NCBI GenBank assembly: GCA_951406725.2
Contig: OX597820.1
Location: 63,240,001-63,304,000 of the forward strand
From: Octopus vulgaris
Taxonomy: Eukaryota
Length of the DNA stretch: 64,000 nt
Direction: 5' to 3'
How positions within the stretch are numbered: the stretch's first letter is position 1; each line of letters opens with the position of its first letter. Below the pieces are notes generated by a model that ran no database searches, was not told where the DNA came from, and saw nothing but the letters and a program-made list of their open reading frames with translations. This document shows, piece after piece, positions 3,419 to 4,577 of this stretch. The position numbers and the translations under genes are program-made.

Positions 3419-3737
3419 TGGTAAAACGGTAAGATAACAAAAGAAAGAAAGAGACCTCAATATTATGTAAATAGAGGAAATTTATCTATACAAAAATATG
3501 TTACATTACTCGATAGTCAAGATAAAACTCTGAGTTTCAGGTGCCGAAGTAGGAATCCACGACATCTCTTCGGTTATTTGGCTATTTGAAAACTCTATGA
3601 AAAGATACCGTTATATATGAGATAACGGTATTTTTTCATAGCGTTTTCAAATAGCCAGATAACCGAAGAAATGTCGTGGATTCCCACTTCGGCATCTGAA
3701 ACTCAGAGTTTTATCTTGACTATCGAGTAATGTAACA

Positions 3738-3744
<7 letters not shown>
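3419..3744. mobile_element. Fold-back mini-element (123-bp inverted arms, each with a hammerhead motif), likely PLE pLTR-derived, in (TA)n
   Basis: 3492-3614 is an inverted repeat of 3622-3744 with a 7-nt spacer. There is an extra ~73-nt tail at 3419-3491. The same family occurs as non-palindromic copies at 54690-55170 and 47710-47965. Confidence 0.8.
3658..3715 (+). ncRNA. Type I hammerhead ribozyme motif (mirror copy at 3521-3578, minus strand)
   Basis: gataa-CCGAAGA-aATGTCG..CGGCATct-GAAA-CT-cag-AG-TT-ttatc: stem I gataa/ttatc, stem III ACT/AGT, predicted GUU cleavage. The relative at 54795-54856 has the canonical CTGAAGA core. Confidence 0.7.
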
Positions 3745-3794
<50 letters not shown>

Positions 3795-3824
3795 TTCCCT
3801 CCTTCCCTCTATCTTTCTCTGATT

Positions 3825-3932
3825 TCTGTCTCTCTGTCTCTCTCCCTCTCTCTGTCTCTCTCCCTCTCTCTGTCTCTCTCCCTCTCTCTGTCTCTCTCCC
3901 TCTCTCTGTCTCTCTCCCTCTCTCTGTCTCTC
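3825..3932 (+). repeat. 18-bp CT-rich minisatellite (CTCTCTCTGTCTCTCTCC)n
   Basis: About 6 tandem units visible. Confidence 0.9.
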
Positions 3933-3974
3933 TATATATTTATTTTTAAAGTAATAAAGTTAATGACTAATCAC

Positions 3975-4036
3975 AGAGTGATCAATAGTTTCGCATCCAC
4001 GAAGGCTATAGCCTCGCGGATGACTCATCAGATTCC
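3975..4036 (-). ncRNA. Type I hammerhead ribozyme motif with long stem II
   Basis: Minus strand reads ggaat-CTGATGA-GtCATCCGCGAGGC-tata-GCCTTCGTGGATGC-GAAA-ctattgatc-actct; the core is canonical. Confidence 0.75.
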
Positions 4037-4049
4037 TTACCTTCGGACC

Positions 4050-4111
4050 AGAGCCTTATGAGTCATCCTACAGATTATACCCTTCGTGCATGCTAAACCA
4101 ATGGTCATTCT
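4050..4111 (+). ncRNA. Decayed inverted copy of the 3975-4036 hammerhead
   Basis: agagc-CTTATGA-gtcatcc...ccttcgtgcatgc-TAAA-CCaatGGTC-attct aligns base-by-base with the minus copy. The core is mutated but stem III ACC/GGT and the GUC triplet are intact. Confidence 0.6.
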
Positions 4112-4577
4112 GTGACCAGATATTAACCTTATTACTTTCATATTTTAATGCTCTATACTTTAGCGTGTACTTCTTAACGAGATATGTCTGTATGTATGTA
4201 TGTATACATGTATGTATGTATGTATGTATGTATGTATGTATGTATGTATGTATGTATGTATGTATGTATGTATGTGTGTATGTATGTGTATGTGTATATA
4301 GGGGTGTGCGTGAATATGTGTGTGTATATCTGTATGTATATATATATGTATATATTTATATAGATAAATAGATAGATAGACAGAAATATAGGTAACTGTC
4401 CATATATACATACACCCATATATATATATATATATATATATACACTTATACACGCATACAAGGACGCGCTGAACGTTACTGGCTTTTAGGGTTTCTCAGA
4501 GGACTTTCCGATGTCTTTTCCATGAAGTAGAATGTATTTTTGCTTATTCAAAACCAGGGCCGTTTTCAATATCCCAC

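Follow-up and report, generated by a model that had tools for sequence, protein, structure and literature searches.

The typical layout of endonuclease-bearing (EN+) Penelope-like elements (PLEs), as drawn in Fig. 2 of Craig 2021 (PMC8557442), comprises an inverted, 5'-truncated copy, a tail at one end and a bias towards (TA)n. Asn-rich inserts in PLEs and head-to-head junctions are described in the cited sections of Arkhipova 2013 (PMC3846280). In the in vitro results taken from Frangieh 2024, both strands of AT-rich DNA are cut and extended by a PLE protein, reverse transcription begins at two sites, one on either side of the tail, and cleavage by the hammerhead ribozyme (HHR) is unnecessary for insertion. 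Two further systems are close to the locus described here. In Schistosoma mansoni, dual minimal HHRs are located on opposite strands, about 100-700 bp apart, and are interpreted as PLEs that were probably truncated (Cervera and de la Pena 2014, PMC4209133); the passages of that paper on these pairs, which concern another host and other HHR families, give no junctions, tails or orientation. Non-LTR retrozymes, as presented in the cited parts of Cervera and de la Pena 2020 (PMC7229834) and Li et al. 2026 (10.64898/2026.07.22.740005), are short, non-coding, PLE-derived and provided with a type-I HHR, like the short units below. In those sources they form head-to-tail tandems from which two same-strand HHRs release a monomer, whereas the present head-to-head units could not release one. 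A retrozyme identity is excluded by this head-to-head layout with HHRs on opposite strands.

This work concerns a window of 64,000 nt from Octopus vulgaris (contig OX597820.1, positions 63,240,001 to 63,304,000), in which a preliminary description had claimed a single geometry at three scales: a minus-strand HHR on the left and a plus-strand HHR on the right of an inverted repeat. The evidence is drawn from this window, public contigs and published papers. The inverted repeats are present in all three sequences (a 6-kb PLE, a 326-bp unit and a 155-bp unit), but the right HHR copy of the 155-bp unit is a broken remnant. No mutual similarity was found between the three units, in agreement with their description as unrelated. 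We consider it probable that they are one-off PLE insertion products of three unrelated families, in which HHR-bearing 3' ends were joined head to head. The HHRs face outward because they are located near the 3' end. The inverted 5'-truncated head-to-head copy, the tail at one end and the (TA)n surroundings are as in published EN+ PLEs (cited sections of PMC8557442 and PMC3846280). A common PLE integration mechanism that places two 3' ends back to back, one of two options offered earlier, is supported, but it has already been published (in the parts of Craig 2021, Arkhipova 2013 and Cervera 2014 cited). The architecture as a class is already known, and the finding is mostly ordinary.

HHR motifs and the 6-kb element

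A relaxed type-I HHR descriptor, composed once the motifs had been seen, fits six window sites, compared with 0.43 on average and 2 at most in 30 block shuffles. These sites are the pair in the 6-kb unit (23137-23104 on the minus and 28819-28852 on the plus strand), the pair in the 326-bp unit (3573-3526, minus; 3663-3710, plus), the left copy in the 155-bp unit (4031-3965, minus) and one site beyond those claimed (31191, plus). Five of the six HHRs claimed earlier are thus recovered, and the right copy of the 155-bp unit fails. With a stricter descriptor, the 6-kb pair alone is recovered among the claimed sites. No unit carries two canonical HHR cores, given A9C in the 6-kb unit, U4C in the 326-bp unit and the broken right copy in the 155-bp unit. 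A pair of HHRs does not amount to independent evidence either, since the second HHR of each pair is merely the inverted copy of the first.

The additional site belongs to a single HHR-like motif at 31180-31245 (plus strand; core CUGAAGA at 31191, predicted cleavage after 31233), with TA/TG repeats about 40 nt past it; it may represent a solitary PLE 3' end from a further family. A tRNA gene at 44074-44155 (plus strand) scores 62.7 bits, which exceeds the Rfam gathering score.

The 6-kb unit (22977-29033) contains an inverted repeat of 1622 nt (22977-24598 / 27358-28979) with 99.6% identity and six differences. Its left part (22977-24598, minus strand) is a tail-less, 5'-truncated inverted PLE copy next to (TA)n, and the main copy (24599-28979, plus strand) holds an ORF (to 28332) followed by the 3' region. 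The one-sided tail measures 54 nt (28980-29033, plus strand), exactly as described before, and is followed by (TA)n. A minimal HHR variant is located at 23099-23143 in the inverted copy (minus strand) and at 28813-28857 in the main copy (plus strand; predicted cleavage after 28852). Its core is CUGAUGC with one additional base (A9C).

The ORF encodes 1271 aa, composed of an N-terminal domain, an Asn-rich insert (residues 200-470, 32% N), an RT with DKSG and YVDD motifs, a linker with CX4CxxC at residue 1145, and a GIY-YIG-type endonuclease with YVGET and CCHH residues. It has 180 homologues at E<=1e-10 and is 98% identical to a protein recorded as Octopus vulgaris; the Pfam search returned no family for the 1271-aa ORF. 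The unit thereby combines the features of an EN+ PLE: a single ORF, a PLE-type RT plus a C-terminal GIY-YIG endonuclease, together with an inverted 5'-truncated copy, a one-sided tail and an HHR near the 3' end. The linker agrees with the CX2-5CxxC pattern of Neptune or Nematis. The Hydra clade (DKT, CxCX5C linker, no CCHH) was considered for this unit and is ruled out by DKSG and CCHH. Judged from these motifs, the linker of the 6-kb element fits Neptune or Nematis rather than Hydra.

The HHR near the 3' end, the RT with a C-terminal GIY-YIG endonuclease and the presence of an Asn-rich insert are all shared with published EN+ PLEs, as far as the cited sections describe them. In the same sections, the insert lies inside or after the RT, whereas here it is N-terminal to the RT; the 6-kb copy also differs in its A9C core and in missing the direct upstream pLTR. 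In other PLEs, the ORF start is encoded by the pLTR and tail. An ATG-started frame of 27 codons (28954-29034) crosses the 6-kb tail and could be such a start; it gives no score against the N-termini of homologues. Within the ORF, the Asn-rich insert maintains an open PLE frame over about 270 codons at 25141-26010, where the opposite strand is open for 289 codons.

Apart from the 6-kb element, a search of the window with 120 homologues (tblastn) hit only a fragment at 57.7 kb, and neither short family is linked to an ORF. This fragment of another PLE (56802-58047, plus strand) consists of broken RT and GIY-YIG frames interrupted by a 12-nt tandem repeat. From its motifs, we take it to be Neptune-like.

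The 326-bp unit and its family

The 326-bp unit (3419-3744) contains an inverted repeat (3492-3614 / 3622-3744) with 6 differences per 123 nt. The left arm (3492-3620, minus strand, with six loop bases at 3615-3620) is a 5'-truncated PLE-type 3' end. It carries a Hydra-type minimal type-I HHR with a U4C core, CCGAAGA, at 3520-3579 (minus strand; predicted cleavage after 3526). The right arm (3622-3744, plus strand) is a tail-less inverted copy followed by (TA)n, with the second U4C HHR at 3657-3716 (plus strand; predicted cleavage after 3710). Both HHRs have one additional base ahead of GAAA. A one-sided 3' tail outside the inverted repeat (3419-3491, minus strand; family tail about 3419-3484) ends in (TA)n. 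Its earlier length of 73 nt holds when counted from the repeat end, but counted from the second end of the family the tail measures about 65 nt. The end point at 3419 is common to this unit and a copy at 54677. As had been stated, (TA)n adjoins both ends of the 6-kb and 326-bp units.

For the family of this unit, contigs from four of 24 listed runs were aligned to 3419-3640 at 80% likeness, a cut-off below which older subfamilies drop. The four runs yielded 7093, 3115, 2363 and 338 matching contigs. The 326-bp unit is a member of a very repetitive Octopus family; the summed contig depth on its arm (up to 2.5 million) does not equal copy number. Loose ends in (TA)n occur at 3423 in 79, 51, 54 and 9 contigs of the four runs, and a second (TA)n end lies at about 3483-3485 in 24 contigs (X1) and 14 contigs (X5). 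The family therefore has two discrete (TA)n-flanked ends about 65 nt apart, as a PLE 3' end with an optional tail would have. At 3572, no alternative letter is recorded among the aligned contigs at the 2% level, so U4C is their majority state. In metagenome contigs, the 326-bp HHR pattern was found at no locus. No RNA source is on record for the unit.

Two siblings are present in the window, one at the tail end and one at the tail-less end, both at (TA)n. The sibling at 54692-55073 (minus strand; 77% identity, E 5e-35) is single, includes the tail, has the core CUGAAGA and extends past the fold-back point by about 190 nt on the 5' side. The sibling at 47711-47983 (minus strand) is also single, with a tail-less end at (TA)n, the canonical CUGAAGA and a deletion of the HHR middle. 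A contig of depth 885 (X13, possibly an RNA run) matches up to 3620 and then continues into the same upstream sequence as both siblings, from which it follows that the loop 3615-3620 is part of the left arm and that the join has one additional base.

The six differences between the arms are distributed as four private to the left and two private to the right arm. At the four left-private sites, the family letter is that of the right arm in 98-100% of depth. Minority letters are nevertheless shared by both arms at 3494 (18-32% of depth) and 3553 (0-35%). Private differences and shared minority letters together point to one template followed by neutral decay in place. A single-template origin of the arms fits these data, with the linked sites making this modest evidence.

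The second earlier option, a self-propagating class of fold-back elements, is unsupported by the window copies, the contigs and the fold prediction. In this explanation the short units are non-autonomous, with the hairpin transcribed whole and re-inserted by a PLE protein. Both sibling copies are single and non-inverted and run beyond the junction, and the contig of depth 885 passes from the junction into ordinary family sequence upstream. A folding prediction for the whole 326-bp transcript gives one hairpin (-199 kcal/mol) with both HHRs buried, which argues against a ribozyme-processed element, and the arm differences resemble decay in place. Across the four runs, no strand-change joints are listed. 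One X2 contig (one of 3115, in one of the four runs) does span the centre of the unit, with five letters fewer. Its depth of 189, against 12-64 for the eight X2 pieces listed, favours self-propagation, but its centre is not that of the window. Judging from the gap positions, this centre would be a perfect palindrome on TTAA, also carried by the siblings; either a fold-back that recurs in the genome or a chimera formed in the library could account for it. In three of the four runs the depth at 3621 is zero, so that the window's own junction is spanned by no contig; such a gap is not counted as evidence. The nearly symmetric arms, the location of two units 200 bp apart and the sufficiency of pLTR sequences for trans mobilisation (cited sections of Arkhipova 2013, PMC3846280) also speak for self-propagation. 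On balance we judge it unlikely. A self-propagating fold-back HHR class was not found in a literature search in which coverage of subscription journals was thin.

Hydra-type HHRs, the 155-bp unit and other palindromes

In File S2 of Craig 2021 (PMC8557442), stem III of Hydra-clade HHRs measures 4 bp and the loop 1 nt, and an additional base frequently precedes GAA. The 326-bp unit has this layout, as does the 155-bp unit when both arms are read together. Compared by eye with entries of that file, the right half of the Penelope-3_HM HHR equals that of the 326-bp HHR over 14 nt, and the core and stem II start of the Octopus element Hydra-1_oBim match it except for U4C. According to the same supplement, Hydra-1_oBim ends 37 nt past the cleavage site, compared with 41 in the 326-bp unit. 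The clade shows an end about 35-40 nt past the cleavage site and a (TA)n target, like the short units, and Penelope-13_HM has an inverted truncated copy with one HHR per strand, as they do. The core is ctga in every Hydra-clade row of File S2, in contrast to U4C in the 326-bp family. None of four window motifs occurs in the portion of the Craig 2021 supplement compared, which makes the short units families other than those of that paper. The Hydra protein motifs (including RWK, DKT and CxCX5C) gave 0/7 in the window, where all copies are short. By this by-eye comparison of short RNA motifs, the short units are likely of Hydra type.

The 155-bp unit does include an inverted repeat, but this spans 191 bp (3948-4138) rather than about 155 and possibly has its own tail (4139-4182). 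Its arms (3948-4031 / 4055-4138) show 18 differences per 84 nt (79% alike). The left arm with a 23-nt spacer (3948-4054, minus strand) carries an HHR with the canonical core at 4031-4025. The right arm (4055-4138, plus strand) retains an HHR remnant that starts at C3, has G5U and G12U and misses the 5' strand of stem I. The candidate one-sided tail (4139-4182, plus strand), a unique stretch of 44 nt placed from its flanks, lies before a TA/TATG microsatellite. The unit has no sibling copies in the window, and its HHR pattern was found at no locus in viral and metagenome contigs.

Two cleavage registers are predicted for the left HHR, after 3980 (minimal fold) and after 3965 (long, monomer-type fold). 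In the long fold, the left arm forms 33 of 33 pairs and the right arm breaks eight; 0.15% of random assignments of the 18 differences spare one arm. Under the short Hydra-type fold, stem III and the stem I strand are perfect in the right arm, and two mismatches fall in the left arm. The stem III of the right arm is that of Hydra-1_oBim. Selection on the left HHR was considered and dropped, as the asymmetry is model-dependent and the short fold favours the right arm. Most simply, the unit is read as an ancient Hydra-type pair damaged in both arms. A-to-I editing as the source of the arm divergence was also rejected (among the 18 changes, A>G in sense accounts for one and T>C for four). The hairpin behind the 3965 register (3965-3990, minus strand) is present in both arms, with a compensatory change.

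The palindromes could instead have arisen after insertion, through a repair or replication template switch at a single PLE end or through a second, opposite insertion into an older copy. The divergence of the 155-bp arms (21%), with seven of the 18 differences in 12 nt of stem-loop II, points in this direction, as does the preference of PLE endonucleases for AT-rich DNA in their own pLTR (Frangieh 2024, cited results). The masked window moreover holds nine short inverted repeats, of which two have an HHR core and seven do not. Against this, the inverted copies end at or near the second natural end of the family and (TA)n instead of in copied flank, and rare letters are common to the 326-bp arms. 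We regard a post-insertion origin as very unlikely. Two palindromes without an HHR core, at 43846-43964 (arms 82% alike, adjoining (TA)n) and 16158-16314 (arms 76%), are candidate MITEs or HHR-less fold-backs. A common interspersed repeat at 34232-34630 has two inverted copies that are 75% alike, and the HHR core is absent from it.

The short units might also be MITEs, i.e. DNA transposon derivatives, with the HHR likeness due to chance. They are short and AT-rich, with long inverted arms and TA flanks; their HHR cores are non-canonical, and the hammerhead family is absent from the best 150 of 184 Rfam matches listed for the window. The excess of descriptor sites over shuffled sequence runs counter to this, together with the canonical core of the sibling at 54.8 kb, the match of the HHR motifs to published Hydra PLE HHRs (cited rows of File S2) and the tail outside the repeat at one end. 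Single-arm copies (two of two siblings) with two (TA)n-flanked 3' ends largely refute it, and we consider it extremely improbable. The earlier suggestion that short fold-back units would be mis-annotated as MITEs is plausible.

Origin and meaning of the head-to-head units

As PLE insertion products, the three units may have formed by twin priming. Following published PLE biochemistry, an RT-endonuclease would nick the (TA)n target on both strands, and each nick would prime reverse transcription at one of two RNA start sites, with or without the tail. Both cDNAs would stop prematurely, and their truncated 5' ends would presumably then be joined head to head. The short units would be the same product, with copies cut to 123-129 nt and 84-107 nt. 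They likely derive from Hydra-clade PLEs or non-autonomous derivatives, and then likely decay without being copied as a unit. Within the class of PLE insertion products, we lean slightly towards this route.

With 6 and 23 nt between them, the arms of the short units are nearly symmetric; this would not be expected from independent truncation and counts against twin priming. This symmetry is better explained by self-priming, in which a cDNA started from the tail end folds back, copies itself and is resolved at a tail-less site. Self-priming also accounts for the minority letters common to both 326-bp arms and for the tail sitting on the longer arm in the 6-kb and 326-bp units, and the apparent palindrome at the shorter X2 centre agrees with it. 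Arkhipova 2013 (PMC3846280) inferred such self-priming from palindromes at inverted junctions; the same sections indicate that self-priming on a sense template would yield a tail-to-tail layout instead. The 6-kb junction shows no microhomology, and the tail-less end occurs in the non-inverted copy at 47711 as well and matches the second RT start site found in vitro (Frangieh 2024, cited results). Within the same class, we give self-priming somewhat less than an even chance.

Several observations count against the PLE reading as a whole. At 54 and about 65 nt, the tails exceed the 30-40 bp given in the cited sections on EN+ PLEs, no ORF is linked with either short family, the frame in the 6-kb tail gave a negative result as an ORF N-terminus, the X2 contig suggests that fold-backs may recur at this site, and the 155-bp arms are 79% alike and come without a sibling. 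A further possibility joins a very abundant, non-autonomous Hydra-type family with a fixed U4C core to a recurrent AT-rich fold-back hot spot, with some hairpins of about 330 bp being re-inserted as a MITE-like class whose two ribozymes face outward; we hold it improbable.

Beyond the one-off PLE insertion products, an abundant family of Hydra type whose core has U4C is mildly new; the supplements of papers other than Craig 2021 may contain these short families. U4C considerably lowers HHR activity in vitro, yet occurs in a viable viroid (Perreault 2011, cited part). The abundance of a U4C family agrees with the in vitro finding that PLE insertion does not require HHR cleavage (Frangieh 2024, cited results), and such a family would escape searches based on CUGANGA. 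With thousands of variants, short two-armed copies constitute a natural data set on how PLEs make inverted copies, in which the correlation of arm lengths, the microhomology at junctions and the sharing of alleles between arms discriminate twin priming from self-priming. If fold-back junctions were common to many loci, they would represent a new kind of non-autonomous retroelement.
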